From an uncultured virus (IMG/VR IMGVR_UViG_3300042992_002627) (lineage: Duplodnaviria > Heunggongvirae > Uroviricota > Caudoviricetes): DNA of 64,000 nt. Below are positions 3,068-64,000 of the stretch, piece by piece. Within the stretch, counting starts at the first letter, position 1; every line of letters starts with the position of its first letter. The notes below the pieces were generated by a model. That model saw nothing but the letters and a program-made list of their open reading frames with translations. It ran no database searches and was not told the origin of the DNA. A program made the position numbers and the translations under genes. The DNA lies in IMG/VR virus record IMGVR_UViG_3300042992_002627, one strand, 5' to 3'.

Positions 3068-3069
3068 TT

Positions 3070-5553: not shown

Positions 5554-5571
5554 CTTAATCTATTTACTACT

Positions 5572-7731: not shown

Positions 7732-7757
7732 TTAGTAAGCTTTAATAATATAAGATA

Positions 7758-48271: not shown

Positions 48272-48453
48272 TTATGGAAACAAACGAATTTCAGGAGTTT
48301 TTCTACTCCTATAAAAAACCTTTTTTCAATTTTATAATTGCTTTGGTTTTAGGTTCAATTTTTACTTATTTAATTTTAAAATGATAAACATAGCAATATG
48401 TTTCCCTCATTAATAAAGGAAACAATTTATAAAACACTTTAATTCATTGAGTT

Positions 48454-49149: not shown

Positions 49150-49227
49150 CAACTTGAATACAAACAAAATTCTTTAAAAAGCAGTTAAGTTATTGATTTA
49201 ATTGCTTTTATGTATATTCTATAATCA

Positions 49228-49271
49228 CCTTCTAAGCAGTAGGTCTCAGGTTCGAATCCTGACTGGGTCAC
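49228..49271 (+). other. attP core of phage B: 3' half of tRNA-Arg(TCT)
   Basis: CCTTCTAAGCAGTAGGTCTCAGGTTCGAATCCTGACTGGGTCAC gives anticodon loop, T arm and acceptor 3' strand. The 5' half is absent and the site abuts the integrase gene. Confidence 0.8.
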
Positions 49272-49278
49272 TTGATGA

Positions 49279-49303
49279 AGTCCGCAATTTGCGGGCTTTT
49301 TTT
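49279..49303 (+). terminator. Terminator after the tRNA fragment
   Basis: AGTCCGCA-att-TGCGGGCT-TTTTT. Confidence 0.65.
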
Positions 49304-49388
49304 GTTTTATGTGGTTTTGTTTTTTTATATTTGGCGACATAAAACGACATATTTTGAAACAAAATCGCAACTTTTTAGCAACTCAATT

Positions 49389-50606: not shown

Positions 50607-50787
50607 TTTCCTCCTTATCTGAAGGTTTTAGTTTTTCTGAAATTTCCTTTAAAATTTCAATTTGTTCTTTTTGGTTTTTTTTGATTTCTGTAATGTCATA
50701 ATACCATTGCCAAAAAGGCTTCATTAAAACAAGTATTATAAAAGCTAAAAAAATTCCAGCGATAATGGTAGTGTATAAATCTGTCAT
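50590..50787 (-). CDS. Small membrane protein
   Basis: N-terminal TM; downstream of the repressor. Confidence 0.55.
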   Translation of the reverse strand: MTDLYTTIIAGIFLAFIILVLMKPFWQWYYDITEIKKNQKEQIEILKEISEKLKPSDKEETNPQS

Positions 50788-50815
50788 TTGATTTTTTTTA
50801 AAAGTAGTGATTTTC

Positions 50816-51178
50816 TCAATAAGCTATATTATTTTTTTCTAAAAGTTTTTTTAGTCGATAATTTTCTTTCATTAATTTCAGATGTTCAACTTGAAGTTTT
50901 GTGTAATCTTCAAAATAATCCGTATTTACTTTATTGTAATATTCTTCTTTCGGTTCTTCAACAATGTTTTTTGCATCTGTGCCAACAATGGCAGATTCTA
51001 TAAAAAAAAGAATTGCATTCAGTGTCCTGACATTTGGCTTCTTCGTTTCGCCTTTCAGTATTTTTTGTATAGCAAATGTGCTAATATTGGTATGCTTTCC
51101 TATCTCATATGCGGTCAAATTGTGCTCTTTGACCTGCTGTTTTATTGTCTCTAACTTCTGTATATTATTCATAATCAA
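50816..51178 (-). CDS. CI-like XRE HTH repressor
   Basis: LTAYEIGKHTNISTFAIQKILKGETKKP. Confidence 0.75.
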   Translation of the reverse strand: MIMNNIQKLETIKQQVKEHNLTAYEIGKHTNISTFAIQKILKGETKKPNVRTLNAILFFIESAIVGTDAKNIVEEPKEEYYNKVNTDYFEDYTKLQVEHLKLMKENYRLKKLLEKNNIAY

Positions 51179-51297
51179 ATATTTACAAAATAGTTTAAAA
51201 AATATCTAAAATTATGCATCTTATATACAACTAATTGTATATATTTGCTATATCAAAATACTTGTACAAGTATTTGTTCAACAAAAGTACAAAAAAC

Positions 51298-51558
51298 ATG
51301 CCATTAATGAATAAAAAATTAAAAGTAAGAGATTTTCAAACATTGGAAAGGTTTGATAATGTGGTAAATGCAACTGAGGTTTTGCGTAAGTTTTTTGCAA
51401 AAGGATTTAAATCTGTAACAGCATTACACGCAGTAGTTCAAAGTTTTTATCCAGAAATCACTTATGTAGACATGTCGAACTTTTGGAACTTCAGAAAATG
51501 TTCTTCTGACATGGTTGATAAATTGAATACTGTTTTAGAAAGATTGAAACATGAATAG
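51298..51558 (+). CDS. Cro-like/early protein
   Basis: Divergent from the repressor; ATG at 51298. Confidence 0.5.
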   Translation: MPLMNKKLKVRDFQTLERFDNVVNATEVLRKFFAKGFKSVTALHAVVQSFYPEITYVDMSNFWNFRKCSSDMVDKLNTVLERLKHE

Positions 51559-51829
51559 TGTAGTAATTCTCAGTGATGAAAATTTTTCTTATTTCAAAAA
51601 TATTGAATGTAGAAAAAGATATGAAAAATGGGTTTCTAACCAAAGATGGATTATGATGTCGATTTTTTATACTTGGGGTTTTAACAATTTTCAATTTTTT
51701 AAAACAATTGTTCTTCGGTTATATCCTGATGTTAACGAAAAGCATTTGCGTGAATTTTATGCCGGCACAGTCATTCGTGAAGATGTCTTAAAATATGTAG
51801 GTTACACTTATCAAATATTAAACGTATGA
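51551..51829 (+). CDS. Hypothetical protein
   Basis: Coupled ORF. Confidence 0.5.
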   Translation: MNSVVILSDENFSYFKNIECRKRYEKWVSNQRWIMMSIFYTWGFNNFQFFKTIVLRLYPDVNEKHLREFYAGTVIREDVLKYVGYTYQILNV

Positions 51830-52162
51830 AAAAATCACTCTTTTTAGAAATCGCACCATTCACATTTATTGCTATGTGTGCCTACTGTTTGTTTTTTGAA
51901 CACTTTTGGTTTTCGGCGGCTTTTTTGGTAGCAACGATATTGGTGGTTTTGTTAGAATATTCACTTTTTATAAAAGAGCAAAACAAATGATCAGGTATAG
52001 TATTCAAGAAATAAAAACCGCTATTGGTGCTTTGAAAGATTTACGGGATGTAGTTTTTTTTCAAAGAAGTATGTTGGCAATTGCTTTTTGTTATTCAGAA
52101 AATGAATTGGCCGATATTTCAATTCGTATTGATTTACGGATTCTAACTTTAAAACAATCAAA

Positions 52163-52459
52163 ATGAAAGAAGTTCAACCTGTGTGTTCTGATAAAATTGA
52201 AATCGTGAAACAACCGGAACATTTAAAAAAAATGGGTTTAGTTGGTTCATTGATTAAAAAGCCAAACTTAGTTGTTTTTGAAGCTTCGTTAATTACCGGC
52301 GATGTTATTCCGGCAGCAATGGAACTTGTTTTGACAACATCGGGAAAAGAATTGCACCAGGTGAAAGTGAAAGAAAATCATATTTACTGCTATGCTTTAA
52401 ATGGTAAAAACGCAGTTAGAAAGCTTTCAAAAATGTTGAGCAATGGAAGGAACGGTTAA
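52163..52459 (+). CDS. Hypothetical protein
   Basis: ORF in the early operon. Confidence 0.5.
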   Translation: MKEVQPVCSDKIEIVKQPEHLKKMGLVGSLIKKPNLVVFEASLITGDVIPAAMELVLTTSGKELHQVKVKENHIYCYALNGKNAVRKLSKMLSNGRNG

Positions 52460-52751
52460 AATAAAAGATTTTATGGACCACTTGAAGGCAAACAATTTAG
52501 TGATTGTGAGTAAAAGTGATTTTGTTGCTGTTTCGGAAGAAGATTTGCAATTGAAAAGGTCAATGTTGATGAAGCAAAAATCAATTTCAATTCGTGAAAT
52601 TGTAGATGCAAAGTTGCTTCCATTAAGAAGTAAAGAAGGCGTGCGTCAGTGGATTAAATCAAATATTATAAGACCAGAAGAAGTGTTGATATCTTCCAAT
52701 GGTCAAATAAAAATATTAACGGTTGCTATTAAAAGATTAGGATATGTCTGA
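52443..52751 (+). CDS. Hypothetical DNA-binding (excisionase-like) protein
   Basis: Winged-HTH-like C-terminus; weak. Confidence 0.35.
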   Translation: MEGTVKIKDFMDHLKANNLVIVSKSDFVAVSEEDLQLKRSMLMKQKSISIREIVDAKLLPLRSKEGVRQWIKSNIIRPEEVLISSNGQIKILTVAIKRLGYV

Positions 52752-53049
52752 TTTAAAAAAGTTAACTGATGTAAAGTTGGAAGAATTACCATTTAAACCA
52801 AGTGATGATTTAGTTTATGCAAGTGAAGTGAGTAATTGTAAGCCCGGCAAATTATGTGTTTCTGAATTGTTTTTTGAACAAATTGAACGATGTGTGTTAT
52901 GTGGGAAATTGATATGATGTTTTGGTGTATTGTGGTTGGAATGGCTGTTGGTTCGTTTCTTTTTGTATCGGGATTTATTGTGTTGTATTTAAGTGAAGTA
53001 ATAAATAGAATATTTAGTAAAAAAGTATAATTCCAAAAACCAAATACCC

Positions 53050-53367
53050 ATGCAAACTACCACTGCTTTTGATAAAGAAAAATGTGCGGCTGTTGAACAG
53101 TCGGTTATGAAAGTGCTTAACTGCAACCTTCATGAGATTGTTAATTATCCGGATACATTCAGTAAAAAAGTGGTGGTATTTGTTTTGTCAAAGTTTTATG
53201 ATTTTGATAAACGAAATGTAGGAAGGGCTTATCAAATGACGTATTTATATGTTCCAACTGTTGTTGATGAATTGGAATTTAAAATACTTACAGATTTCAA
53301 GTTTAGAGAACAAGTATCAATGATTTTAAAAGAAGTGGGTTATGCCTTTGAAGAAGTGGTCGCTTGA
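53050..53367 (+). CDS. Hypothetical protein
   Basis: ORF in the early operon. Confidence 0.5.
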   Translation: MQTTTAFDKEKCAAVEQSVMKVLNCNLHEIVNYPDTFSKKVVVFVLSKFYDFDKRNVGRAYQMTYLYVPTVVDELEFKILTDFKFREQVSMILKEVGYAFEEVVA

Positions 53368-54094
53368 AGAAAATGAAATAATAAAAAAGTATTGGAATAT
53401 TCCAATGCGTGATTTGCTTGAAAAATTGCCAGGAAGAAATTCGAAAACAATTTATTGGAAAATTTCTCAATTGGGTGAAAATAGGCAAACTTATAAAAGA
53501 TACACTGTTGATGAAGATGTGTTTATAAAAGCTAATTATAAGACAATTGGGAACTTTGAGATTGGCAGAAAAATTAAACGAACTGCTAAATCAATATCAA
53601 AAAGAATGATTGTTTTAGGTTTAAGAAGGAATGGTGATGATTTTAAGGAATTAGCAAAATCAAATCGAGGTTGTTATAAAAAAGGGTGTGTTTCTAAAAT
53701 TGCTTTTCCGTTAGGGGTTTTGCAGTTGGTTTATGATTCAAAGTTGGACCGTCATTTTTACAACATTAAAACTGAAAAAGGTTTTGTTAGGTTTTCAAGG
53801 TATTTGTATGAGTTGTTTAATAATGAAAAATTAAAGGATACTGATATTGTTTTTCATGCTGATGGAAATTCATTAAATCTATTAAAAGAAAATTTAATTA
53901 AAATTACTCGAAAACAATTGTTGTATGAAAATAATTTTAAAGATGAAGCCTTTGTTAAACGCATTTTTAGAATACAAAACCCTGAATTGATTGATAATAT
54001 TATAAAAAACCATCATGATTTAATTCAGGTGAAAAAACAAAGTTTTTTGTTAAATAAAAAAATTAAAGAAAATGACATTTCAAGAAAAGCTTGA
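53342..54094 (+). CDS. HTH-repeat protein with degenerate HNH-like C-terminus
   Basis: WSLEE/YTVDED repeats; VFHADGNSLN..ENL motif. Confidence 0.5.
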   Translation: MPLKKWSLEENEIIKKYWNIPMRDLLEKLPGRNSKTIYWKISQLGENRQTYKRYTVDEDVFIKANYKTIGNFEIGRKIKRTAKSISKRMIVLGLRRNGDDFKELAKSNRGCYKKGCVSKIAFPLGVLQLVYDSKLDRHFYNIKTEKGFVRFSRYLYELFNNEKLKDTDIVFHADGNSLNLLKENLIKITRKQLLYENNFKDEAFVKRIFRIQNPELIDNIIKNHHDLIQVKKQSFLLNKKIKENDISRKA

Positions 54095-54479
54095 TCAGTT
54101 TTATGGTAAGAAATTCCGCCACGACGGAAAAGAGTTTAAAGTAGTAGATGTTTGCATCCGCGAAAACAAAGCTGTCATTAGAACCGACAAACGCACATTT
54201 GTTTATTACGAATCGGAATTGGTATTGTTTATGAATTCGGTTGAATTTATTGTACATGCAAATCTGCAAGAGTGGAAGCCAAAAGAAGCTCCGGTTGTAA
54301 CTGTTTTTAGGAATGAAACCAATGCAGAAAAAGTAAACTCTAAATTAATGGAAATGTTTGACACTATTTGTCAAAATCCAACCAAAGAAAACATTGACAA
54401 AGCCGATGCAATGGTGCGTGTTTCTGATGCTATGGTAAAGAATGAGTTGATTCGTTTAAAATATTTAACACTCAAGTAG
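54072..54479 (+). CDS. Hypothetical protein
   Basis: Coupled ORF. Confidence 0.5.
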   Translation: MTFQEKLDQFYGKKFRHDGKEFKVVDVCIRENKAVIRTDKRTFVYYESELVLFMNSVEFIVHANLQEWKPKEAPVVTVFRNETNAEKVNSKLMEMFDTICQNPTKENIDKADAMVRVSDAMVKNELIRLKYLTLK

Positions 54480-54481
54480 TT

Positions 54482-55213
54482 ATGCAATTTCAATTTGATA
54501 GTAAAATAGCCCAAGATCATAGCGTAAATGAAGCTGTGTTTATCCATAATTTATACTTGTGGATCAAGTACAATAAAGCCAACGAAAAGCATTTTTACGA
54601 GGGTAAATATTGGACGTACAATACTAAAAAAGCATTTGCAGAATTGTTTCCTTTTTGGTCATTAGACCAGGTGAAAAGAATCATCGATTCACTATTGAAA
54701 AAAGGGTTGATTTTCGCAGGCAATTTCAATGAAAATTCATGGGATAAAACGAACTGGTATTCGTTGTCTGATGAAGTGCTTTTTATCTACGAAAACGGTT
54801 CGAAGCCCAATAAAACTGCATTAGGCGAAATCGCCCAATCGAGTGGTGCAAAATCGCCCAATCGAATGGTGCAAAATCACCCAATCGATGAGTGCAAAAT
54901 CGCCCAATCATTTATAGGAACATATAATAAAACATATAATAAAGCATGTGAGGGTGCACTCGCTTTTTTTGAAATAAATTTTCCTTCTTCCTACGAAAGT
55001 TTAATGATGCAGTTTAAAACGAAAATCAAAGATTTTCAAAAGTTCCGAACGCTTTTCGATGCAAAGGTTGAAACTGAAAAGTTAGAATACGATCAACGAG
55101 TTTTATCCGGGCGGTTTATTTCCTTCGCTACAAACTGGATTGAGAATGAAAAAAAAGAATCTAAGGTGATTGAGTTGTACGAAGGTCCAAAACATAAAAT
55201 AGCAGGTTTTTAA
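54482..55213 (+). CDS. Replication initiator (DnaD/lambda O-like wHTH) with internal iterons
   Basis: N-terminal wHTH (WTYNT...FPFWS...WY); internal repeats; precedes DnaB. Confidence 0.75.
   Translation: MQFQFDSKIAQDHSVNEAVFIHNLYLWIKYNKANEKHFYEGKYWTYNTKKAFAELFPFWSLDQVKRIIDSLLKKGLIFAGNFNENSWDKTNWYSLSDEVLFIYENGSKPNKTALGEIAQSSGAKSPNRMVQNHPIDECKIAQSFIGTYNKTYNKACEGALAFFEINFPSSYESLMMQFKTKIKDFQKFRTLFDAKVETEKLEYDQRVLSGRFISFATNWIENEKKESKVIELYEGPKHKIAGF
54825..54909 (+). repeat. Four 23-bp-period iterons GC(G/A)AAATC(G/A)CCCAATC (phage B origin)
   Basis: Copies at 54825, 54848, 54871 and 54894. Confidence 0.8.
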
Positions 55214-55214
55214 A

Positions 55215-56735
55215 ATGAAAACAGTAGAATCTTTAAAGGCAACAAAATCGGCAATTATTCAAATGGAAAAAGGATTGGTTCCACCGCAAGCAATTGACTT
55301 AGAAGAAGCAGTCTTGGGTGCTGTTTTAATTGATGAAAAAGGCGTTTATGATATGTTTGCAGTGATACAAACATCGGCTGTTTTTTATAAGGAGCAACAT
55401 GTTTTGATTTATGAAGCTGCTGCTGCTTTATTCGCTGAAGGATTGCCAATTGATTTGCTTACAATTTCGCAAAAGTTAAAGAGTCTAGGTACTTTGGAGC
55501 GTGTTGGCGGTGACTTTTATTTGATTGCTCTTACTCAGAAAGTTTCTTCTTCTGCTCACACGGACTACCACTGCCGGATATTAATGCAAATGTATTTACG
55601 GCGTTTAATAATCATGTTCAATTCTAAAATCACTGGACTATGTTACAATGATTCAACTGATGTGTTTGATTTGATTTCGCAATGGTCAGATGAATTTGAT
55701 AAAGTGGCTGATATTACATCGGTTGGTAGATCTACAAAAAGCCTTCCGGTTTCATTGGAAGATGTGAAAAAAAATATTGAAATGTTATCTAAAAATAAAG
55801 AAGATGTTGTGTTAAGTGGTATTCATACCGGCTTTCAAAGAATTAATAAATACACTGGTGGATATCGTGAGCAGGATTTAATAATCTTAGCAGCTCGTCC
55901 TGGTATGGGAAAAACTTCTAAAGCTTTGAAAACTGCTTTAGAGAATATTAAAAACAATGTTCCTGTTGGTTTTATAAGCGGTGAAATGTCTATGATGCAA
56001 TTAACATCGCGATTGATTGCATTGGATACTAACTTCCATTTGAATCAAATTATGAAGTACGGATTCGAAAAATCTGAATACTTCGTTACATTGCAAAATC
56101 ATGTCGATAGAATGAAAAAGTATCCATTGTTTGTTGATGATAGTGGTAAAATGGATATATCTGATGTTGTCATTGTTATTAAGAATTGGCACAGAAAGTA
56201 TGGTGTTAAGTTGGTTATTGTTGACTATGTGCAGTTGATGAGTGACCGTTCAAAGAAGGGAACACGAACGGATGAATTGGCTTCTGTTTCAAGAAGATTA
56301 AAGCTGTTAGCAAAGGAATTAAACATTACTGTAATCTTATTGGCTCAGGTTAACCGTGACTGTGAAAAGCGTGGTACATCGAAGCGTCCATTTATATCTG
56401 ACATTAAAGACTTTGGTGCTGGCGAACAGGATGCTGATATCATTGAGTTTATCTACCGACCTGAGTATTACAAACTTGAAATGGCTGAAGAAGATTACGA
56501 TCATGCGTTGGCTTATCTGTTAGATAAAGGAGCGAACACTGAAATCATCTTTGCTAAATACCGAGGTGGTGCAACAGGAACCACACTGTTGAAGTGGGTG
56601 GGTGATAAGACAAAGTTCATTGATGTTGATGATGAGTTGGATACTGCTAATTATGAAGTTGAACAACCTATCACTGTTATGTCGGCGGCTCAGGCATTTG
56701 AACCACCTATTAATTCTAACGAACCACCATTCTAA
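55215..56735 (+). CDS. dnaB: Replicative DNA helicase
   Basis: PPQAIDLEEAVLG, AARPGMGKT, VDYVQL, LAQVNR and EQDAD motifs. Confidence 0.95.
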   Translation: MKTVESLKATKSAIIQMEKGLVPPQAIDLEEAVLGAVLIDEKGVYDMFAVIQTSAVFYKEQHVLIYEAAAALFAEGLPIDLLTISQKLKSLGTLERVGGDFYLIALTQKVSSSAHTDYHCRILMQMYLRRLIIMFNSKITGLCYNDSTDVFDLISQWSDEFDKVADITSVGRSTKSLPVSLEDVKKNIEMLSKNKEDVVLSGIHTGFQRINKYTGGYREQDLIILAARPGMGKTSKALKTALENIKNNVPVGFISGEMSMMQLTSRLIALDTNFHLNQIMKYGFEKSEYFVTLQNHVDRMKKYPLFVDDSGKMDISDVVIVIKNWHRKYGVKLVIVDYVQLMSDRSKKGTRTDELASVSRRLKLLAKELNITVILLAQVNRDCEKRGTSKRPFISDIKDFGAGEQDADIIEFIYRPEYYKLEMAEEDYDHALAYLLDKGANTEIIFAKYRGGATGTTLLKWVGDKTKFIDVDDELDTANYEVEQPITVMSAAQAFEPPINSNEPPF

Positions 56736-56737
56736 TC

Positions 56738-57073
56738 ATGTCAACAGCACCAAAAAAACAAAACAGACCTTGGGTTAAAGAAACAAAAGCATTCGAAAGA
56801 CCTGTTGACTTCTCATGGTTCTATAATGACCGTAAGTGGCGTAAGGTTTCAAAGGCTTACCGTGATGCAAATCCTGTTTGTGAATGTGAACAATGCAAAG
56901 CTTCACAAACAGTTAAGCCGGCACAAGTGTGTGACCATGTCAAAGGGTTAAAGTTTCTGTTAGATAACAATATGGATCCGTATAACGCAAATGAATTACA
57001 ATCGATGTCACACGAATGTCATAATAAAAAATCCGGAAAAGAATCCCACCGTTCCGGAAGGGGTATGGGGTAA
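56738..57073 (+). CDS. HNH endonuclease (packaging-associated)
   Basis: FYNDRKWR...CEC..C...DH...CHNKKS; upstream of terS. Confidence 0.8.
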   Translation: MSTAPKKQNRPWVKETKAFERPVDFSWFYNDRKWRKVSKAYRDANPVCECEQCKASQTVKPAQVCDHVKGLKFLLDNNMDPYNANELQSMSHECHNKKSGKESHRSGRGMG

Positions 57074-57170
57074 AATCTCTACGAGGTAGCGAGGTCGTAC
57101 ATCGCTGCTTAGTCAGGATTTTACTCAGGGTTAAAAAAAGTGAGGGGGGGTTAATTTAATAATAATAGCT

Positions 57171-57617
57171 ATGAATGAAATGAAAGTTGTTTCAATTGGA
57201 AAAGGTTCTGACAATTTATTGATTGTTCCGAAGGCTCCTGTTTATTTGAATGATGAAGCTAAAAAACATTACAAAGAAATGGGAAACATTTTAGCAAAAA
57301 ACAACCGAATGAAAGAAATCTTTTTGCCGGCTTTAATTATTTATGCTGAATCTATGGCCCAGTTTGAATTTGCGATTTCTGAAATTAGAAGGAAAAATAA
57401 AGAAAAACAAGGTAGTGGTTATGTGCAAAAATTTGCAACCGGAGCACAAAACATTTCTGTGGAAGTAAGCTTGAAAAAATCTGCCATTGATGATTTATTA
57501 AAATGCTTTAAAATTTTTGGTATGGATCCAAAATCAGAAAAAGAATTAAAAGACATTACCGACCCAAATCAAGGCAACTTGTTTGAAGAAATGTTGAAAA
57601 TGAAAAAGGGCCAATAG
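57171..57617 (+). CDS. terS: Terminase small subunit, P27 family
   Basis: KAPVYLNDEAKKHY...FGMDPKS. Confidence 0.75.
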   Translation: MNEMKVVSIGKGSDNLLIVPKAPVYLNDEAKKHYKEMGNILAKNNRMKEIFLPALIIYAESMAQFEFAISEIRRKNKEKQGSGYVQKFATGAQNISVEVSLKKSAIDDLLKCFKIFGMDPKSEKELKDITDPNQGNLFEEMLKMKKGQ

Positions 57618-57644
57618 GCAACATTACCGAAAAACTAAAGCTTT

Positions 57645-57926
57645 TTGAATACAAAAAAAATATCAGCAGCAATGTTGATCTGGATTGCTTTTAAATTTTT
57701 TAAAATGAAAATCGGACAAAAAATGGTATTTGATTTAGAAGCCTGGATAGGTGAAGAAATGATTATGGAAGAACATACAGCTGCAATTTTAGACATCTGT
57801 ATTGATCCACTTGGAAGGCATGAATCAAAATGCATTGTGGTTGTCAATTCTGAAAAATATGGAATTCCTTTTTCACAAATCAAACAAGTATTGCCGGCAA
57901 ATGGGGAACAGTTAGTTCTTTTATAA
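57645..57926 (+). CDS. Hypothetical protein
   Basis: Its stop codon abuts the first attC-like site; true start uncertain. Confidence 0.4.
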   Translation: MNTKKISAAMLIWIAFKFFKMKIGQKMVFDLEAWIGEEMIMEEHTAAILDICIDPLGRHESKCIVVVNSEKYGIPFSQIKQVLPANGEQLVLL

Positions 57927-58067
57927 TTGCCAACGGCATCTACTTTGCGAAGTGGCGGATTTGGAACACCACAGCTTCAATTTAGCACTACCGTTGATTA
58001 GAATTACAAGGGTTAAAATTAGCACTGCACCCGCCATTTTGCAAAGCAAGTGTTAGCAAATCGTTTT
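57927..58067 (-). repeat. attC-like site 1
   Basis: GCCAAC...CTTTGCGAAGTGGCGG (57943-58) / CCGCCATTTTGCAAAG (58031-46)...GTTAGC. Confidence 0.75.
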
Positions 58068-58071
58068 CATT

Positions 58072-58338
58072 ATGTTTACCAATATAAAAATAGAAGAAGT
58101 TTTAATTTTTGCAAAGCAAGGGATTCAAGGATTTACCACTGATGATGGTGATATTGTTGAACCTAAAACAAAAGAGGAAGTGCTAGAAGATATAGAATTG
58201 ATTGATGATTTGTTGTCAATTATGAAATCAAAAATGCTCTTAAATAAGAAAAAAGGGTTAAAAGCCGTAATAGATGGACGATTAGCGTTAGCAGTTGCCC
58301 CCGATTCAGTTAGAATAGGTGGTACGAATCATTTTTAA
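58072..58338 (+). CDS. Cassette 1 hypothetical protein
   Basis: Fills the space between GTTAGCAAA and TTTGCCAAC. Confidence 0.6.
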   Translation: MFTNIKIEEVLIFAKQGIQGFTTDDGDIVEPKTKEEVLEDIELIDDLLSIMKSKMLLNKKKGLKAVIDGRLALAVAPDSVRIGGTNHF

Positions 58339-58408
58339 AATGTTTGCCAACGGTTCTCGGCTATATTTAGGCTGGGATTATGAAAACGAAACTTTAAATT
58401 AAAACAAA

Positions 58409-58738
58409 ATGAAAGTAGAAATTACAAAAATTATGCAAAGTACCGAAATACTAAACGAAATTAAAAATCAATTAGAACAATTAGAGCATAAAGGCTATGA
58501 TAAAAATAGTTTTAAAAGCGGTTACCTTTTAGGATATGCCAAAGCGTTGCAATTGCAACAACCTGATGTTATAAAATCGGTTTGCGGTTCGTTGCCGATT
58601 TCAAAGGTGGTTTTCTTTGAGTTGAAAAAAGGGAAATACCTTGCAAGTAATGGGGTTGAAGTAACAACGGAATTTATACTAAAAAACGAACACGCTATAT
58701 TTCACGATAATGGTTATGTGATTGTCGAAAGGCAATGA
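58409..58738 (+). CDS. Cassette 2 hypothetical protein (reads through a junction)
   Basis: The ORF spans the GTT junction at 58568-58596. Confidence 0.55.
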   Translation: MKVEITKIMQSTEILNEIKNQLEQLEHKGYDKNSFKSGYLLGYAKALQLQQPDVIKSVCGSLPISKVVFFELKKGKYLASNGVEVTTEFILKNEHAIFHDNGYVIVERQ

Positions 58739-58876
58739 CCGCTAACGTTGAGCATATACGAAGGCAGGGCTTTTAAATACCAAAGCTCGGTTACTTCCGA
58801 AAGCTCAATAGAAATACAAAAGTTGAAAGTTTGCACGTCTGCCCTGCTTTTGTATATGCATTGTTGGCAGTAGTGC
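58731..58876 (-). repeat. attC-like site 3
   Basis: GCTAAC...GCATATACGAAGGCAGGGC (58752-70) / GCCCTGCTTTTGTATATGC (58841-59)...GTTGGC. Confidence 0.8.
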
Positions 58877-58906
58877 TTTTTATTTACAAACAAAAATTAA
58901 ACAAAT

Positions 58907-59326
58907 ATGAAAATAGTAAAAATATTATTAGACGATGGAACAAGTAGAGAAGTAGGAGAAATTAAACCTTTATCTCACTTTGAAGAAAAATACCCTGAAA
59001 ATAATAAATGGTATTGGCAAAGGTGTTACGAAAGACAATTCAATAATTTTGAAGATGATATTATTGAATTTCTAAATGAAAGTAATGTTGAAGAATACGC
59101 AAAAGACCACTTAAATTTAGTTGAAGAAGACGATGTGGAAGAAAAAGATATTTCTGATTTTACTGATGCTGAAATTTTAGAAGAAATGAAAGATAGAAAA
59201 TTAAATAAAGGAGGGAATATAATTACTTCTAGTTTTATTGAAAGATTTGAAAACATTGTAAAAGCAGAAAACATTATTTTATTAGACAATTTACTTTCTG
59301 AATTAGAAACTAAACTCAATCTTTAG
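58907..59326 (+). CDS. Cassette 3 acidic hypothetical protein
   Basis: Lies between GTTGGCAGTAGTGC and GCATTACTGCCAAC. Confidence 0.6.
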   Translation: MKIVKILLDDGTSREVGEIKPLSHFEEKYPENNKWYWQRCYERQFNNFEDDIIEFLNESNVEEYAKDHLNLVEEDDVEEKDISDFTDAEILEEMKDRKLNKGGNIITSSFIERFENIVKAENIILLDNLLSELETKLNL

Positions 59327-59337
59327 CGACTCCAACG

Positions 59338-59490
59338 GCATTACTGCCAACGTTCCGCAGCTTGTGGTCAGTTGCGGATTTAAGCACCGAGCCACAAAAA
59401 AATAAACAATAACTTTAAATTTAAAAACAATGAATAAAAATAATTCCAAAGACCCGCAATTGCCACAAACTGCTGTTAGCAAATCGGCTT
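59338..59490 (-). repeat. attC-like site 4
   Basis: GCCAAC...GCAGCTTGTGGTCAGTTGCGG (59357-77) / CCGCAATTGCCACAAACTGC (59454-73)...GTTAGC. Confidence 0.8.
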
Positions 59491-59870
59491 TAAAATTTGA
59501 ATACGGATTTAATTCTGTGAATGGAATTGTAAAAAAGAGGTACTATTTAAGCGAAATACCGTTTATGCACGATAAATGCGATGTTTGGCAAATCTTACCA
59601 GTTGTTTATGTTAGGCAATTTACTGGATTTACAGACAAAAAAGAAGTTGAAATTTATCAAGGCGATATTTGTAAATACCATAAAAATACAAGTAAATGGT
59701 TAGTATCATATCATTTTGAAGTAAGGTTTAGAAATGGTGCTTTTTATGCTTATTGGGAACGTGAAATGATGGGAAAATTAGAGCAACATTGGGATTTACT
59801 TTCTCAAAAAGATATGCGAAATATTAGAGTGGTTTCAGATATTTTTCAATCAGCGCAAACTACGTCATAA
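59430..59870 (+). CDS. Cassette 4 YopX-family protein
   Basis: QFTGFTDKKEVEIYQGDI...V.F..GAF motif. Confidence 0.7.
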   Translation: MNKNNSKDPQLPQTAVSKSALKFEYGFNSVNGIVKKRYYLSEIPFMHDKCDVWQILPVVYVRQFTGFTDKKEVEIYQGDICKYHKNTSKWLVSYHFEVRFRNGAFYAYWEREMMGKLEQHWDLLSQKDMRNIRVVSDIFQSAQTTS

Positions 59871-59935
59871 GCTGTTTGCTAACTACTATATGTAAAAACC
59901 ATTTATAAACCTTAACAAAATAAACACTACACGCC

Positions 59936-60739
59936 ATGAACATCGGAAAGTACCTCGAAATGTATTCCGACGATTTAAAGTTAAAAAACTATTCGTCAAA
60001 CACAATTGAAAATTACAAATCACAAGTGGGATTATTTTTAAAACACTTTGATAAAGTAGCAACCAAGCCATCTGAGATATCAGAAAAACAAATAAAAGAA
60101 TGGTTGCTGATGGCCAACTCAATTAACGGCAGAAAACACAGAATATCTGCCGTGAAATTGTTTTACAAACTAACAGGAAAACAGCCTTTGAAGTTCCGTC
60201 ACATTGAATATCCGCGGTCCGAAAAGAAGTTACCACAAATAATTGACAAAACCTATCTATTGGAATCAATCAATAAAATACAAAACAAAAAACACAAAGC
60301 CATCATTGCTTTGGCATACTCAACCGGAATGCGAGTTTCCGAAGTATGTAATTTGTTGATTGCCGATATCGACAGCAAACGAATGATTATTACCATCCGA
60401 CAATCAAAAGGGAAAAAAGACCGCATTGTGGCATTGTCATCAAAAATACTTGAAATACTTCGCGAGTACTTCAAAGAATACAAGCCAAAAACATTTTTAT
60501 TCAACGGTCAATTTGGTGATCAGTATTCACACACGAGCTGCAACCAAATAGTAAAACAATATTTAGGAAAAGAATTTCACTTTCATCAGCTCCGGCACTC
60601 AAATGCGACAGCACTTTTAGAAGCGGGAACCGATTTGCGAATCATACAAAAACACCTGGGCCACGCGTCTAGTAAAACAACAGAAATCTACACCCACGTC
60701 AGCACCAATTTATTACAATCAATGGCATTACCAATTTAA
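59936..60739 (+). CDS. Integron-integrase-like tyrosine recombinase (short; SAM-like N-domain, no Arm domain)
   Basis: YSxNTxxxY N-terminus; TGMRVSE, KGKKDR, HQLRHSNATALLEAGTDLR and LGH..SKTTEIYTHV, with all catalytic residues present. Confidence 0.85.
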   Translation: MNIGKYLEMYSDDLKLKNYSSNTIENYKSQVGLFLKHFDKVATKPSEISEKQIKEWLLMANSINGRKHRISAVKLFYKLTGKQPLKFRHIEYPRSEKKLPQIIDKTYLLESINKIQNKKHKAIIALAYSTGMRVSEVCNLLIADIDSKRMIITIRQSKGKKDRIVALSSKILEILREYFKEYKPKTFLFNGQFGDQYSHTSCNQIVKQYLGKEFHFHQLRHSNATALLEAGTDLRIIQKHLGHASSKTTEIYTHVSTNLLQSMALPI

Positions 60740-60749
60740 AAACTCAAAG

Positions 60750-60983
60750 ATGAAAATCTTCTTCACCTCCTTTTTTCAAATCGGCTTAGTAGCAATCAAT
60801 ACCTACATGATCACGCAATTAATATGGCTCGGAATCTTTATAGTTTCATTTTTAATATCGCTATTGTGGTGTTTCAATGTGTCAAAAATATCCGTATCAA
60901 CCAGGGCAGCCAAATTAATCTACGCAACCGGTGCAGGAACCGGAGCTGTAACCGGACTTTTAATCTTAAAACTATTTATTTAA
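60750..60983 (+). CDS. Small membrane protein
   Basis: Three hydrophobic segments. Confidence 0.5.
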   Translation: MKIFFTSFFQIGLVAINTYMITQLIWLGIFIVSFLISLLWCFNVSKISVSTRAAKLIYATGAGTGAVTGLLILKLFI

Positions 60984-61171
60984 CTAAAAATAAAGTCATG
61001 CCAGAAACTGAAAAAGACAACTTGATCAAAAATCTTTACAAGTGTATCGAAGAACAAAAAGCGACAATAGAAATGCTTTACAAAGAAATAGATTTATTAA
61101 AAAAACCGACTAAAAAATGAAACCATATTGTTGATGTCAACAAAAAGGTTTTTAACTAAAAAACAAAAACA

Positions 61172-61435
61172 ATGAACCCAAAACAATTTGCACAAACATC
61201 CCACCGCATTGCTGTATTATCGGCATTGTTGGTTGAATCGTTGGAAGATATCAATGCATCATCCGCTGCAGCTTTAGATTTAAAGCAAAAAGCCAAAGAA
61301 ATCATTCCGCATTGTGAAAGAATGCTCGAAGAAGTTTACACCGCCAAAAACATCACTTCCGGCACCTACTTTAACGAGCTTTCAAATAAAGTAGATACCG
61401 TAATCCGTAAAAATTTTGAAATAATAACGATGTAA
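61172..61435 (+). CDS. Hypothetical protein
   Basis: ORF with A-rich leader. Confidence 0.55.
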   Translation: MNPKQFAQTSHRIAVLSALLVESLEDINASSAAALDLKQKAKEIIPHCERMLEEVYTAKNITSGTYFNELSNKVDTVIRKNFEIITM

Positions 61436-61437
61436 CC

Positions 61438-61830
61438 ATGAAAAAACACACCTTCGAAACCTATCAAAAAAAAATAATTGATTCAAACATCAAAAACCTT
61501 GAACACGAGCCAATTGTAAAACTTTGTTATGTTTTTTATTGTTTCATCACTGAAATTTATGAAAATTATATTGAAGATTGCGGAATCCCGTATTCTCCCA
61601 GCAGTGTAAATCGCGAATATTGCGAAAAGGTACTTAGTGTTTACCGAACATTATTTAATCGAATTCCTTCTTTAAACCAGGATCAATTGAACTGCTTTAT
61701 TCTTAGTATAAACGGTAATGATTTTAGTTATTACCAAGCACTTATGAATGTTAGATATAAAATTGAAGATGCTGAAAGATTTAAACCCGAAAACTTCGAC
61801 TTGTTTCACGATCAATTTAAAGCTTACTAA
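61438..61830 (+). CDS. Hypothetical protein
   Basis: Coupled ORF. Confidence 0.5.
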   Translation: MKKHTFETYQKKIIDSNIKNLEHEPIVKLCYVFYCFITEIYENYIEDCGIPYSPSSVNREYCEKVLSVYRTLFNRIPSLNQDQLNCFILSINGNDFSYYQALMNVRYKIEDAERFKPENFDLFHDQFKAY

Positions 61831-61831
61831 A

Positions 61832-62071
61832 ATGAGCCTTTTAAAACTACTTAACGAAGCAAAAAAACTCTACAGCGAAACCCGTGGAGCTGCATTTGTC
61901 ATCACCGGTTCCAACTGTGGTGAATATTGGTTCTTAAAAATGCCTTCCATTGGTGAAACCTTTGAAAGTGTGCATTTAGAAACCGTATTGGAAGATTATA
62001 TTGACCTGGTACTTAACAACCGTGTCAAAGTGGCGAAAAGAAAAAACACAACAAAAGAATTCCGACTATAA
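61832..62071 (+). CDS. Hypothetical protein (homologue of 39691..39930)
   Basis: ATG at 61832; shared motif with the phage A gene. Confidence 0.6.
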   Translation: MSLLKLLNEAKKLYSETRGAAFVITGSNCGEYWFLKMPSIGETFESVHLETVLEDYIDLVLNNRVKVAKRKNTTKEFRL

Positions 62072-63787
62072 ATGCAACCAGCCCAATCCCAACTCGAATC
62101 AATCCCTTTTCAATATGCAGCCGCCGTTCGTTCCGGTGAAATTACTGTTGGAAAAAAAATAAAACTTGCTGTCGAGCGGTTTTATCAATGGATAGAAACC
62201 GCTGAAGCCGATGGTTATCACCTCGATCATGCAACTGGCATGTTTGCAGTTACGTTCTTTGAAAACTTCCTGAACCATACCGAAGGAAAAATGGCGGGAA
62301 AACCGTTTGTGTTGGCACCATTTCAGCAATTTACCATTTACAACGTGTTCGGGTGGAAAGATGCCACCGGCAAACGCCGAATCAAAACCATTTACGACAA
62401 ACGAGCCAAGAAAAACGGAAAAACGGCTGAAATGGCAGGTGTGGCATTATATTGCATGTCGTTTGATGAAGAAATCAAAGCTCAGGTGTTTATTGGGGCC
62501 ACAAAAGAAGAACAGGCACGCCTTTGTTGGAATGCGGCCAAAGATTTCATTGATTCCTTTGTGGCAAACACTCGTTTAAAGCAATTGGGCTTTCGGACCA
62601 TGCAAAACAAGGTGATTTTCGAACCTACCAACAGTTTTCTTCGTCCGTTGGGTGGCGATAGTAAAACCCAGGATGGAATTAACAGCCATTTATCGATAAT
62701 TGATGAATATCACGCTCATGCAACCGATGGCGTGAAAGAAAACCTTGAATCATCAGCAGTTCAACGCTTGCAACCTTTAACTTGGCACATCACAACAGCC
62801 GGAACTAACATTGCATCGGTGTGTAAAAATTATGAAGATTCGGTTATTGAAGTGTTGGAAGGCCGAAAAAAAGACGACCGCCTTTGGATTATGATCCATG
62901 ATTTAGATGAAGATGACGATTGGAACGATGAAAGTAAATGGATAAAAGCCAATCCATTATTAAACCAAGGACTTTCAATCGACAATATTCGCGATGAATA
63001 CCTTAAATGTGTCAATCAACCTTCTAAAATTCCGAATTTCAAAACCAAACATCTAAACATGTGGGTCGATGCTCCAAAAATTTGGATTCCAACCGAAATA
63101 TGGCAAAAAAATAAAATTTCCGAAATACCGTTATCTAAGTTCCAAAAACATGGAAGCTATGCAGCTCTCGATTTGTCAACCACTACAGATTTAACAGCAT
63201 TTGCTATACTTTCCGAACCCGATGAACACGAAAAGCGATATTTAAAAGTATTACTGTTTTGTCCTGAAAAAACAATCGAAAGACGAAGCAAAGAAGACCG
63301 TGTTCCTTACAAATATTGGGCAGATGCAGGTTTTATCATTGCAACACCCGGTGATGTTGTAGATCATGCCGTTGTAGAAGATAGAATTCGCATTGAATAC
63401 CACAAACATGCAGTAAAACGCATCGAAATAGATCGCTATTTGGCAACAAATATCACATCAAATTTACAAGAAGAAGGTTTTGAAGTGGCCTATTTTACAC
63501 AAACAATTACAAATTATTCGTTTCCAACCAAAGAATTTGAACGCCTTGTTTACTTAAATAAAATAATTCACGACGGTAATCCCGTTTTAGAATGGATGCT
63601 TTCCGGGTGTGTGGTGATTTCCGACACAAACGAAAACATCCGAATATCAAAATCACGTTCACACGCAGGAGGTAAGAGAATCGATGGAATAATAGCTTCA
63701 ATCATGGCATTAGGCGGTTCGTTATCACCAAAAGAAGAAAAATCAAAATACGAAAAACCAATGGATGAATCCGAAATCTATATATAA
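62072..63787 (+). CDS. terL: Terminase large subunit (Terminase_1 / HK97-like)
   Basis: KKNGKT Walker A, IIDEYH Walker B, ITTAG, LDLSTTTDLTA and KRIDG motifs. Confidence 0.95.
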   Translation: MQPAQSQLESIPFQYAAAVRSGEITVGKKIKLAVERFYQWIETAEADGYHLDHATGMFAVTFFENFLNHTEGKMAGKPFVLAPFQQFTIYNVFGWKDATGKRRIKTIYDKRAKKNGKTAEMAGVALYCMSFDEEIKAQVFIGATKEEQARLCWNAAKDFIDSFVANTRLKQLGFRTMQNKVIFEPTNSFLRPLGGDSKTQDGINSHLSIIDEYHAHATDGVKENLESSAVQRLQPLTWHITTAGTNIASVCKNYEDSVIEVLEGRKKDDRLWIMIHDLDEDDDWNDESKWIKANPLLNQGLSIDNIRDEYLKCVNQPSKIPNFKTKHLNMWVDAPKIWIPTEIWQKNKISEIPLSKFQKHGSYAALDLSTTTDLTAFAILSEPDEHEKRYLKVLLFCPEKTIERRSKEDRVPYKYWADAGFIIATPGDVVDHAVVEDRIRIEYHKHAVKRIEIDRYLATNITSNLQEEGFEVAYFTQTITNYSFPTKEFERLVYLNKIIHDGNPVLEWMLSGCVVISDTNENIRISKSRSHAGGKRIDGIIASIMALGGSLSPKEEKSKYEKPMDESEIYI

Positions 63788-64000
63788 CATAAAAACATTA
63801 TTAACTATGACAAAGCTGGAAATCGAACAAAAAAAAATCATCGAAAAACAACAACATAAAATAAATCTAATGCGAAAGCTGGCAACATCATCTGGTTTTT
63901 TTGAGTATTATTTTTCAATCTTAAAAAAGTTTAAAACACAGTGTAGTTGTTTTCATGAAGTGAATGACATGTATTTTAATTTTTTTGGTGAATACAAATA

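Follow-up and report, generated by a model that had tools for sequence, protein, structure and literature searches.

A region of the 64,000-nt stretch of DNA analysed here (the window, one strand of the uncultured virus record IMGVR_UViG_3300042992_002627) is very probably an integron-like gene-cassette platform carried by a lake-water phage. It comprises the gene for a Xer-type tyrosine recombinase (59936-60739, + strand), a conserved, hairpin-free docking site that ends at the recombinase ATG (59884-59935, + strand), and four + strand cassettes. This anatomy is conserved in dozens of phages; the hairpins covary, the two ends of the cassettes are complementary, and isolates and populations differ by exact cassettes. 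From its constant adjacency alone, we infer that the recombinase is the catalyst of cassette exchange.

IntI enzymes use an additional segment, the I2 helix, on attC, where it reads extrahelical bases, and this domain is thought to be essential for integron enzymes. A preliminary description of this DNA, made from its letters, had proposed that the recombinase lacks the segment, citing a 267-aa protein with 53 residues between KGKKDR and HQLRH. Counting confirmed the length and gave exactly 53 residues, and alignment, profile and Foldseek comparisons all found the IntI-specific segment absent from the catalytic domain. When aligned to IntI4 of V. cholerae (PDB 2a3v), residues 12-180 correspond to IntI residues 11-182 and residues 212-257 to IntI residues 262-307, with 31 residues in the interval for which IntI4 has 79. 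The predicted failure against IntI profiles was also seen: the protein scored 134 bits against TIGR02249 (cut-off 265), split into two stretches, and 83 bits against NF011946 (cut-off 435). It was below the cut-off of every Xer profile as well, with XerA_Arch as its top NCBIfam match (184 bits, cut-off 220) followed by XerC (162 bits, cut-off 335) and XerD (158 bits, cut-off 330). The protein matched PF00589 in Pfam (E 4e-40) and, among PHROGs, phrog_1 of the integrase category (E 4.9e-47). The catalytic set, read off an alignment to XerA, XerD and IntI4, is complete (R133, K158, H217, R220, H243 and Y252) and invariant in 39 relatives. An AlphaFold model (pLDDT 91.1) had XerA (5hxy), IntI4 (2a3v) and XerH as its top folds in Foldseek, and the alignment to 2a3v needed 318 columns for 267 residues.

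In a tree that took in two IntI sequences (IntI1 and IntI2) and two Xer sequences (XerC and XerD), IntI1 and IntI2 formed their own clade (support 100/99) with the phage recombinases outside it. XerC+XerD, the phage clade and two Bacteroidota clades meet at an open backbone; a lineage ancestral to IntI and one convergent with it, the two origins raised in the preliminary description, would both fit such a tree. A scan of viral contigs found 229 relatives of the recombinase, from which we kept 80 loci; 59 of these have a clean full-length recombinase ORF, and two (L042 and L048) have an early stop codon in the frame.

The preliminary description had also read 59884-59935 as the equivalent of attI, and comparison of the related loci supports this assignment at the level of sequence. 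After the final AAC of the array (59881-59883) the sequence reads TACTATATGTAAAAACC; the docking site itself starts TACTATATGTAAA, with a second TGTAAA-like repeat about 13 nt further on. As had been described, the stretch after the last AAC forms no hairpin, and the segment 59865-59940 does not fold (-1.8 kcal/mol, z +0.3). DNA similarity to the related viral loci begins at the GCTAAC half-site (59878-59883): the start falls within 59877-59880 for 31 loci and, taking the wider interval 59862-59880, for 36 of the 80. Upstream of that start lie unrelated cassettes, with only two short matches. Five loci start 50-62 nt before the ATG, and the four of them that were displayed all begin exactly at TAAC. 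The motif AAC/NNNTAYDTRTR (the slash marks the junction) was present 42-53 nt 5' of the recombinase ATG in 54 of 73 loci, with the consensus TAcTATATgTAaaaA, and the docking site in the motif-bearing loci reads AAC/TAYTATATGTA, some 52 nt ahead of the ATG. An ancestral empty site had been predicted for the window; the exact junction was not recovered, as a 19-nt pattern had 0 matches in viral contigs, a result that shows nothing either way, and an equivalent empty site does exist in one cultured phage, Freya_1.

At its far end the array abuts a 93-aa ORF (57645-57926, + strand) that forms a fixed left flank and has no match in Pfam or PHROG. The array's left edge, TTATAA TTGCCAAC, directly follows the stop codon of this ORF (TAA, 57924-57926), just as had been described; next after this stop comes the distal boundary half-site GCCAAC (57929-57934, + strand; repeat family D6), the array end farthest from the recombinase. 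GC[CT]AAC occurs 26 times in the 64 kb, and within the array at 57929, 58346, 58741, 59346 and 59878, each time just past an ORF. Three of these sites are followed by long imperfect hairpins, at 57931-58055, 58743-58866 and 59348-59478. A scan of the + strand of the window returned these three and three others, weak and atypical, inside genes at 21-23 kb.

All four cassettes lie on the + strand. The one farthest from attI (57935-58351) has hairpin site A (57931-58055; fold -20.6 kcal/mol, z -2.4; row 1 of hairpin alignment A1), an 88-aa ORF (58072-58338) and the end box TTTGCCAAC, which is complementary at 8 of 10 positions to the box after the hairpin, GTTAGCAAAT. The cassette with site C (58747-59351) has its hairpin at 58743-58866 (fold -20.4 kcal/mol, z -1.9), a 139-aa ORF (58907-59326) and the end box ACTGCCAAC; its boxes GTTGGCAGTA and TACTGCCAAC are complementary at 10 of 10 positions (inverted repeat I22). 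The cassette adjoining attI (59352-59883) has hairpin site D (59348-59478; fold -16.0 kcal/mol, z -1.2; box complementarity 9/10), the end box TTTGCTAAC and a 146-aa YopX-family ORF (59430-59870; PF09643, E 2.5e-11) that starts inside the loop of the hairpin. The remaining cassette (58352-58746) is degenerate or chimeric, with a left arm (58352-58385), a 109-aa ORF (58409-58738) and the end box CCGCTAAC. Its left arm is consensus-like and has no complementary right arm; the best partner matches 15 of 30 positions, so that the site at 58346 is without a hairpin partner. The region 58338-58420 does not fold (z +0.2), and the end boxes of this cassette do not match each other. Part of it (58536-58583) resembles the right arm of hairpin site D (77%; repeat D1), and its segment 58397-58571 has 4-5 times the depth of its flanks and is found in other contexts in metagenome contigs. 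Folded alone, the window's hairpins beat shuffled sequences only moderately (z -2.4, -1.9 and -1.2), and the case that they are not due to chance rests on comparison with other loci.

This comparison gave 202 candidate hairpin sites. At least one chained site was present in 56 sources (55 loci and the window), with up to nine within the 6-kb flank, and the upstream arrays have up to nine cassettes, each combining ORFs with a hairpin some 125 nt long that has TAAC and GTTA as its limits. Hairpin lengths fall into classes of about 72, 88 and 126 nt. Because terminal boxes are hybrid inside arrays, a filter that requires terminal-box pairing misses all of the window's sites. In an alignment of 100 sites, 16 of 20 hairpin pairs have compensatory changes. 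The arms are paired in 91.6% of cells versus 64.6% in shuffles (none of 500 shuffles reached 91.6%) and 35-50% in slid controls, the covariation score was 0.622 versus 0.152 in shuffles, and changes on both sides were found in 523 cells versus 168. The cassette ends behave similarly: in 125 of 194 cases at least five of the six bases that follow a hairpin are complementary to the six that precede the next junction, compared with 2.2% of random pairs and 5 of 202 when the two sides of the same hairpin are compared. The other 69 of the 194 successive box pairs match at four or fewer of six positions, for which missed sites may be part of the reason. On the + strand of the hairpins we counted 85 G.T pairs against 28 A.C pairs, an excess that may be biased by the prediction of the structure on that strand.

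Covariation of this kind cannot separate RNA from single-stranded DNA, and all ORFs as well as the better-folding strand lie on the + (sense) strand. The hairpins might act at the RNA level, for example to stabilise, process or terminate the sense transcript, and resemble attC by coincidence. We regard this as barely credible as the whole explanation: it leaves unexplained the complementary boxes that flank each ORF, the cassette-precise deletions described below and the constant link between recombinase and junction, and an Rfam scan returned no family, its sole match being a chance miRNA (E 0.73). The hairpins could nonetheless have an RNA role alongside recombination.

Differences among related phages and populations bear directly on the platform reading. 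One and the same cassette (92.9% identity over 1027 nt) occupies the fifth place from attI in L003 but the first place in L031. Near the sites, matches between loci meet the left hairpin edge in 8 of 24 starts and 8 of 24 ends, and the right edge in 0 of 23 and 1 of 22. In L023 and L027 the ORFs are 95.3% identical and the hairpins upstream of them differ; the two loci become similar 13 nt short of the hairpin's right edge. Ten cultured isolates of Polaribacter phage Freya have nested arrays of 0 to 4.9 kb, all broken directly after xAAC, and every break joins xAAC to the same attI. Relative to Freya_10, which served as the reference, the array segments present are none; 1-889; 1-1791; 1-1791 plus a different cassette; 1-889 plus 1792-4989; 1-4682; and 1-4989. 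These variants are virion genomes closed into circles, with no difference outside the array.

Independent lake metagenomes contain the window's own array minus exactly one cassette. A contig from run X13 omits exactly 605 nt, the site C cassette (joint 58743 to 59349, side 84, 6 shared letters), and one from run X6 omits exactly 532 nt, the attI-adjoining cassette (joint 59348 to 59881, side 27, 3 shared letters); in X6, depth is about 0 across the skipped 532 nt and the flanks are covered. A further joint, 58747 to 59880, is 5 nt off the precise junction. These joints come from contigs rather than reads, and two of the useful ones have short sides (27 and 30 nt); array parts without contig cover in runs X13 and X15 were left out of the evidence. 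In runs X6 and X15, contigs track the left flank to 57933 and then enter a different hairpin, and in four of four runs there are contig ends or loose ends at 57932/57933 and contigs that end at array junctions. Run X15 also has a joint from 59491 to 59854 (side 25) inside the YopX ORF. A crossover directly after AAC is supported by the boundaries of shared cassettes, by the Freya isolates and by the metagenome joints in the window array, and the sequence comparisons indicate that cassettes move as units exchanged at one defined base. The suggestion that the attI-adjoining cassette is the newest fits both the nested Freya arrays and the population that lacks only that cassette, and falls short of proof.

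An enzyme in the PHROGs integrase category (phrog_1) might instead be a lysogeny integrase, with the 52 nt before its gene as attP and the upstream region as a hot spot where accessory genes accumulate by homologous or illegitimate recombination; those who isolated Freya, Leef and Ingeline took the integrases of these phages as a sign of a temperate lifestyle (PMC8776804). Several observations make this explanation highly improbable. In the window, terS and terL enclose the recombinase gene, which thus has phage genes to its left and right. The array breaks at one base, beside repeated hairpins with complementary end boxes, and the Freya variants are closed virion genomes in which the array is the only difference. 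Finally, in a bacterial set with one genome per species, the closest relatives of the recombinase are 40-51% identical, apart from one 65% match on a 2-kb contig, so that close prophage copies are rare. The enzyme could still have a dual role, in lysogeny and in cassette exchange. A TerS search for phages sharing the left flank returned two loci; one contig ends before the array, and in the second (53% identical) terS and terL adjoin directly, leaving no platform in between. The nearest record (G001, the other phage in the window) has no copy of the array region, and a DNA search of cultured phages gave short gene fragments only.

On the platform reading, the 267-aa recombinase would act on the attI-like site at 59884-59935 and on attC-like partner sites that travel with the cassettes. 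A cassette on the + strand would run from just after one xAAC up to the next. It would open with a hairpin of about 125 nt (CG(K)NNN-stem...stem-T-GTTA, then six variable bases), continue with a single ORF or a few, oriented towards the recombinase, and close with an end box, the complement of the six variable bases plus TAAC. Once a cassette is excised as a circle, pairing of its two end boxes would extend the hairpin by a 10-bp R-box of the kind seen in attC. Exchange would take place between AA and C on the + strand, at the 5' side of the hairpin, with cassettes gained and lost at the recombinase-proximal end and internal ones excised precisely.

In integrons the bottom strand of attC, folded as a single strand, reacts with a double-stranded attI. 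Indirect signs of a reaction on a folded strand come here from the covariation of the arms, from exchange at one hairpin edge and from the surplus of G.T pairs on the + strand. We lean towards a hairpin site that reacts as folded single-stranded + strand DNA. The absence of I2 may hint at a different, double-stranded mechanism, in which cassettes would be exchanged by Xer/dif-type recombination, with a duplex core site in each hairpin arm, inverted sites bounding the modules and no need for a folded single strand. The Xer-like profile scores of the enzyme (XerA, XerC and XerD at 184, 162 and 158 bits) and its lack of the IntI segment that reads extrahelical bases agree with such a mechanism, and L023 and L027, with their ORFs in common and their hairpins different, look as if the two had been exchanged separately. 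The pdif modules of Acinetobacter plasmids, which are bounded by inverted Xer sites, provide a precedent. However, the arm sequences diverge while remaining complementary, as the excess of both-side changes makes plain, which argues against a duplex reader, since such a reader would keep the sequence constant. Exchange points are found at a single hairpin edge only, G.T exceeds A.C on one strand, and the attI partner has no second arm. We therefore consider duplex exchange unlikely.

Genes carried in the arrays are mostly of no known family: 123 of 150 array ORFs scanned had no Pfam match, and the 27 that did include 11 DNA methyltransferases as well as Mom, an Acb2/Tad1-like protein and YopX. 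Among array ORFs of at least 80 aa, 174 are on the + strand, reading towards the recombinase, and 8 on the - strand. The cargo is probably a set of genes for accessory and counter-defence functions, which the phage operon would express by read-through. Homologues of the recombinase on Bacteroidota chromosomes and plasmids also lack the insertion and lie beside similar arrays; erm(F) is a cassette on one Bacteroidota plasmid, and a truncated recombinase copy lies next to tet(X3).

A broader proposal could as easily prove wrong as right: that integron-type recombination proceeds without I2 in a second large, Xer-based lineage, spread over Bacteroidota chromosomes, plasmids and phages and missed by integron finders, which serves phages as a store of counter-defence genes (methyltransferases, Mom, Acb2/Tad1-like) and bacteria as a carrier of resistance genes (erm(F), tet(X3)). 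If it is true, either the rule that integron recombination needs the IntI-specific domain is wrong or a second solution exists, and the origin of integrons from Xer-like enzymes becomes directly testable. Phages of a phylum that is prominent in water and in the gut would then own a dedicated device with which to collect as well as swap small accessory genes, and the array ORFs without a known family would be a ready catalogue of candidate counter-defence genes. A platform beside erm(F) and tet(X3) may be a route of resistance-gene capture unseen by integron surveys, and the cultured Freya isolates would offer a working laboratory system.

The element shares much with classical integrons such as those of IntI1 and V. 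cholerae IntI4. In both, a tyrosine recombinase adjoins a conserved, hairpin-free docking site, arrays consist of short, mostly one-gene cassettes exchanged at one base, and the site is an imperfect inverted repeat bounded by ...AAC and GTT..., conserved in structure more than in sequence. The two cassette ends are likewise complementary, and arrays grow at the recombinase-proximal end. In contrast to classical integrons, the phage enzyme has no IntI insertion (134 bits against a cut-off of 265), and its cassette ORFs point to the recombinase (174 versus 8), in antisense to those of canonical cassettes, which lead away from attI and are expressed from a promoter at the integrase end. The platform is phage-borne, between terS and terL, its hairpins fall into the classes of about 72, 88 and 126 nt, and one of the window's four cassettes departs from the attC type in having no hairpin partner.

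Qi et al. (2023, PMC9892861) reported clusters of attC sites without an integrase (CALINs) from the genomes of phages, including attC-like sites and methyltransferase cassettes in phages such as Polaribacter phage P12002L, one site of which was recombined by IntI1 in an assay. That work used IntegronFinder and HattCI and linked no recombinase to the CALINs; its text does not contain the words 'Xer' or 'Flavobacter'. P12002L is absent from the 30 phage records that match the recombinase at E 1e-20 or better. Neither a literature search nor the Freya report and a classification of tyrosine recombinases gave a description of a phage or Bacteroidota integron-like system with an insertion-less enzyme.

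Bacteroidota proteins of the family NF040815 (xerA; 'site-specific tyrosine recombinase/integron integrase' at NCBI) come close: they are 40-46% identical to the phage enzyme, lack the IntI insertion, have hairpin cassettes alongside, and share a docking motif of ACATATA, 4-6 bases and then GTTR. The chromosomal forms differ in their length of 345-384 aa with an N-terminal extension, in reaching the family cut-off (220-234 bits, against 184 bits for the window's protein), and in the position of their arrays downstream of the gene, where the ORFs keep to the canonical sense orientation.

Phage CTX integrates as a folded single strand through XerC/D. Like the pdif modules, it relies on Xer-type enzymes without the IntI insertion, and it is a precedent for a folded single-stranded hairpin as substrate. 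Whereas pdif modules and CTX borrow the Xer enzymes of the host and use dif-like 28-bp sites, the phage element described here encodes its own enzyme, its own docking site and multi-cassette arrays.

Upstream of the recombinase gene, the motif GC[CT]AAC follows the stop codons of five successive ORFs (57929, 58346, 58741, 59346 and 59878), and three of these sites open long imperfect hairpins that end in GTTAGC or GTTGGC (57931-58055, 58743-58866 and 59348-59478). The ten bases past each hairpin are complementary to the ten that close the next ORF at 8, 10 and 9 of 10 positions, respectively. As the preliminary description had it, the last half-site, GCTAAC at 59878-59883, is followed by 52 nt of non-folding sequence, and the left edge of the array reads TTATAA-TTGCCAAC. 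Folded singly, the hairpins were only moderately better than shuffled sequence (z of -2.4, -1.9 and -1.2), and an Rfam search of the array hairpins returned no family match. The cassette at 58352-58746 has a consensus-fitting left arm without a partner (best match 15/30) and a right-arm-like stretch similar to that of the last hairpin, and we read it as chimeric or decayed. The N-terminal half of its 109-aa ORF, up to the right-arm-like GTTATAAAATCGG (58397-58571, 175 nt), is covered at 4-5 times the depth of its flanks in lake metagenomes (~150-210 versus ~40 in run X2; ~150 versus 12-45 in run X6) and runs on there into other sequences at both ends; it looks like a module common to many cassettes or phages.

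The array lies within a phage gene block on the + strand: a DnaB-like helicase (55215-56735), an HNH endonuclease (56738-57073) and the small terminase (57171-57617) are followed by a 93-aa ORF, four small ORFs, the recombinase (59936-60739), several more small ORFs and the large terminase (62072-63787). Positions 1-45211 of the window are 100% identical to G001, a viral record of 45,284 nt that is complete and has direct terminal repeats, and the array is carried by a second phage-like genome from ~45109 onward (45109-64000), which shows 94% identity to the initial 465 nt of G001, beyond which it diverges. The window is a composite, which could be either joined via the common terminal region or made of two records end to end. 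The G001 part encodes its own ordinary tyrosine integrase (414 aa, 30873-32117, - strand), which is unrelated to the array and scores only 65 bits against TIGR02249.

For the recombinase, a scan of viral contigs yielded 229 relatives; the top 80 are 49-89% identical to it. DNA similarity to the window begins at 59862-59880 in 36 of these 80 loci, and at 59877-59880 in 31 of the 36, and then spans the gene; upstream of the docking-site start, the 80 loci gave two short matches to the window only. Aligned upstream regions have (T/C)AAC|TACTATATGTAAA... in common, with total divergence to its left. Among the 73 loci whose upstream sequence is long enough, 54 have the docking motif, usually 51-52 nt 5' of the ATG, and five loci begin 50-62 nt 5' of the ATG, the four of them displayed starting exactly at TAAC. 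Upstream of the recombinase, 202 candidate hairpin sites were detected, whose lengths peak near 72, 88 and 126 nt; at least one chained site, counted in up to 6 kb of upstream flank, was present in 56 sources (55 loci and the window), with up to nine per source. ORFs of at least 80 aa number 174 on the recombinase strand versus 8 on the opposite strand. Across all loci the hairpins fall into classes of ~70-75, 85-91 and 124-131 nt with few between, and many ORFs begin in a hairpin loop, with translation running on across the right arm (for example at 59430 in the window). In one locus found by its small terminase (L096, TerS 53% identical), terS abuts terL and the platform is absent between them; after terL lies a single isolated hairpin of the array type, which begins with TGAC rather than TAAC and is followed by a C5 DNA methyltransferase (region 5429-7946).

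Comparison between loci indicates what moves. A 1027-nt cassette comprising a hairpin and three ORFs occurs in both L003 and L031 at 92.9% identity, as the fifth cassette counted from the docking site in the former and as the first in the latter, and seven more inter-locus matches start within 3 nt of TAAC at a hairpin left edge and span the hairpin and the next ORF. Near the left edge of a site lay 8 of 24 match starts and 8 of 24 ends; the corresponding figures for the right edge were 0 of 23 and 1 of 22. A hairpin therefore moves together with the ORF that follows it on the + strand, and exchange is at AAC|. As a counter-case, L023 and L027 have two common ORFs at 95.3% identity but differing hairpins.

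The closest cultured isolates, Cellulophaga phage Ingeline and Polaribacter phages Leef and Freya, are 33-38% identical. Freya is represented by ten isolates of 43,978 to 48,920 bp, of which we compared seven over the region from a 402-nt ORF to the integrase, with Freya_10 as reference (array 1-4989). Freya_1 has no array, Freya_2 has 1-889, Freya_5 has 1-1791, Freya_6 has 1-1791 plus a different 442-nt cassette, Freya_8 has 1-889 plus 1792-4989, and Freya_9 has 1-4682. All breaks come after ...CAAC or ...TAAC and are joined to one sequence 49 nt 5' of the integrase ATG. Such nesting is expected if arrays grow or shrink at the end nearest the recombinase, and in Freya_8 an internal segment has been excised precisely. 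In its available text, the paper describing these phages takes the integrase as a sign of lysogeny, and cassette, variable region and indel are not among its words (PMC8776804).

Window positions 57600-60100 are present in 24 lake-water metagenome runs, one of which may be the source of the window, and we looked for natural variants in contigs, rather than reads, of four others. One contig skips exactly 605 nt, from 58743 to 59349, corresponding to the 139-aa-ORF cassette (side of the joint 84 nt, six letters, AACGTT, common to both ends), and another skips exactly 532 nt, from 59348 to 59881, corresponding to the YopX cassette (side 27 nt, AAC common); in the run with the latter, depth is about zero across the YopX cassette and the flanks are covered. 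The remaining joint (58747 to 59880) misses a precise junction by 5 nt, and two of the joints are supported by short sides. All four runs have contig ends at 57932/57933, 58743-58747, 59349-59352 and 59878-59881, and in two of them the left flank runs on into a different hairpin.

The recombinase has 267 residues, 53 of them between KGKKDR and HQLRH, and the expectations that it would lack the IntI insertion and escape IntI profiles were both borne out. Residues 12-180 and 212-257 align to residues 11-182 and 262-307 of Vibrio cholerae IntI4 (2a3v), and therefore 31 residues lie between the two blocks in the phage protein versus 79 in IntI4. The integron-integrase model TIGR02249 gave 134 bits against a cut-off of 265, with the match split in two stretches. 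Pfam identified Phage_integrase (E 4e-40) and a SAM-like N-terminal domain; the best NCBIfam model was XerA_Arch (184 bits, under its cut-off of 220), with XerC at 162 and XerD at 158 bits. The predicted structure (pLDDT 91.1) most resembles XerA (5hxy), IntI4 (2a3v), XerA (4a8e) and XerH, and the catalytic residues are all there and invariant across 39 relatives. In viral loci L042 and L048 the recombinase frame has an early stop, at codon 10 and codon 91 respectively, reflecting either decay of the copies or errors in sequencing. A 37-sequence tree contains five groups (IntI1 with IntI2, XerC with XerD, two Bacteroidota clades and a phage clade) and places the phage enzyme outside IntI; its unresolved backbone favours none of an ancestral, sister or convergent origin.

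We aligned 100 hairpin sites of 122-131 nt, in which only AACG (left) and TGTT (right) are invariant. Of the 20 pairs predicted by RNAalifold, 16 show compensatory changes; 91.6% of cells were paired versus 64.6% in shuffled alignments (0 of 500 shuffles as high), the covariation score was 0.622 versus 0.152, and sliding the partner by 1-3 columns left 35-50% paired. The arms therefore stay complementary while their sequence drifts, which is a hallmark of attC sites. In the same result G.T pairs outnumber A.C pairs on the + strand, 85 versus 28, an excess that suggests folding of the + strand, although this is also the strand on which the structure was predicted. In 125 of 194 cases, the six variable bases past a hairpin are complementary at five or more positions to the six that precede the next junction, versus 2.2% of random pairs and 5 of 202 comparisons between the two sides of the same hairpin; a circularised cassette would therefore close its hairpin with a 10-bp box.

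In the mechanism we propose, the recombinase would bind the double-stranded docking site and a cassette site, and strand exchange would take place at AA|C on the + strand, which matches the position and polarity of attC bottom-strand cleavage in integrons. The five or six bases past AAC opposite one T on the other arm would form an unpaired, attC-like spacer. A mechanism acting on double-stranded DNA is a live alternative, consistent with the absence of I2 and with the Xer-like enzyme; a folded single-stranded substrate is somewhat the more probable, given the covariation, an exchange point on one side only and the bias between strands. As the folded single-stranded DNA of phage CTX is a substrate for XerC/D, the IntI insertion is in principle dispensable.

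Our literature search found no prior description of this phage/Bacteroidota integron-like system. Integrons and integrase-less attC clusters are known in phages from IntegronFinder and HattCI, the available text linking no recombinase to the clusters (PMC9892861), and portions of two further papers describe the IntI insertion as "not fully conserved" in an integron-like subgroup of tyrosine recombinases (PMC8138268) and, using IntegronFinder 2.0, report almost no integrons in Bacteroidetes (PMC9024848).

We scanned 150 of the 259 distinct array ORFs with Pfam, those dropped being mostly shorter than ~75 aa, and 27 had matches. These include DNA methyltransferases (eight N6/N4, two C5 and one D12), two YopX proteins, two PAPS-reductase-like proteins, a GNAT acetyltransferase, a dATP/dGTP pyrophosphohydrolase and several domains of unknown function. 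Of the four array ORFs in the window, one encodes a YopX protein. One Mom-family protein (L008:3221-3832) and one protein with an Acb2/Tad1-like hairpin domain (L014:5605-5898) belong to known kinds of counter-defence protein.

Relatives also occur on plasmids, with Acinetobacter the commonest genus among the matches (149 of 974 records). The mobilizable Flavobacteriaceae plasmid NZ_CP092416.1 of Flagellimonas marinaquae (L189, 3883-6792) has a phage-like layout, with hairpin sites at 3883-4007 and 4591-4718 that have complementary boxes. The site at 4591-4718 is followed by erm(F) (5017-5817). This gene ends in CCGCATAAC, of which there are two copies, the second lying 50 nt 5' of a 272-aa "xerA" 44% identical to the window enzyme; because of the preceding hairpin and this repeated end, erm(F) looks like a cassette of the integron-like platform. 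On Acinetobacter baumannii plasmid NZ_CP133707.1 (L188, 3986-6007), a truncated homologue of 221 aa, 48.8% identical across residues 62-267, adjoins an ISVsa3/ISCR2-type element and lies 190 nt upstream of tet(X3), which is preceded by right-arm-like sequence ending in TGTTATGTGCC. Papers on tet(X) reportedly use the name xerD for the homologue beside tet(X3) and suggest that tet(X) came from Flavobacteriaceae.

A profile search of one genome per bacterial species returned at least 577 relatives; the best 80 are nearly all from Bacteroidota and 40-51% identical, except for one 65% match on a 2-kb contig. Those examined are 345-384 aa long, have an N-terminal extension and also lack the IntI insertion (44% identity, small gaps only). 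All five scanned reach the NCBI model "site-specific tyrosine recombinase/integron integrase" (220-234 bits) and score 197-218 bits, in two stretches and under the cut-off, with the IntI model. AAC/GTT-bounded hairpins of 115-140 nt number 22 in 190 kb downstream versus 4 in 355 kb upstream, a tenfold density, and occur downstream in 14 of the 44 genome loci having at least 1.5 kb there. After the recombinase gene, L170 (5779-9097) has three ORF-plus-hairpin units with complementary boxes, and several Bacteroidota loci have the motif ACATATA, 4-6 bases, GTTR 100-170 nt past the gene's stop. Such units are also seen downstream on the Bacteroidota chromosomes L158, L146, L162, L171 and L147. The contig ends less than 1.2 kb past the gene in 33 of 80 genome loci, as if assemblies break just after it. 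When read in reverse-strand orientation, the phage sites match the Bacteroidota chromosomal sites in type. On chromosomes the order is recombinase, docking site and sense cassettes, whereas in the phages the recombinase gene is turned round and the cassette ORFs run antisense to the canonical direction.
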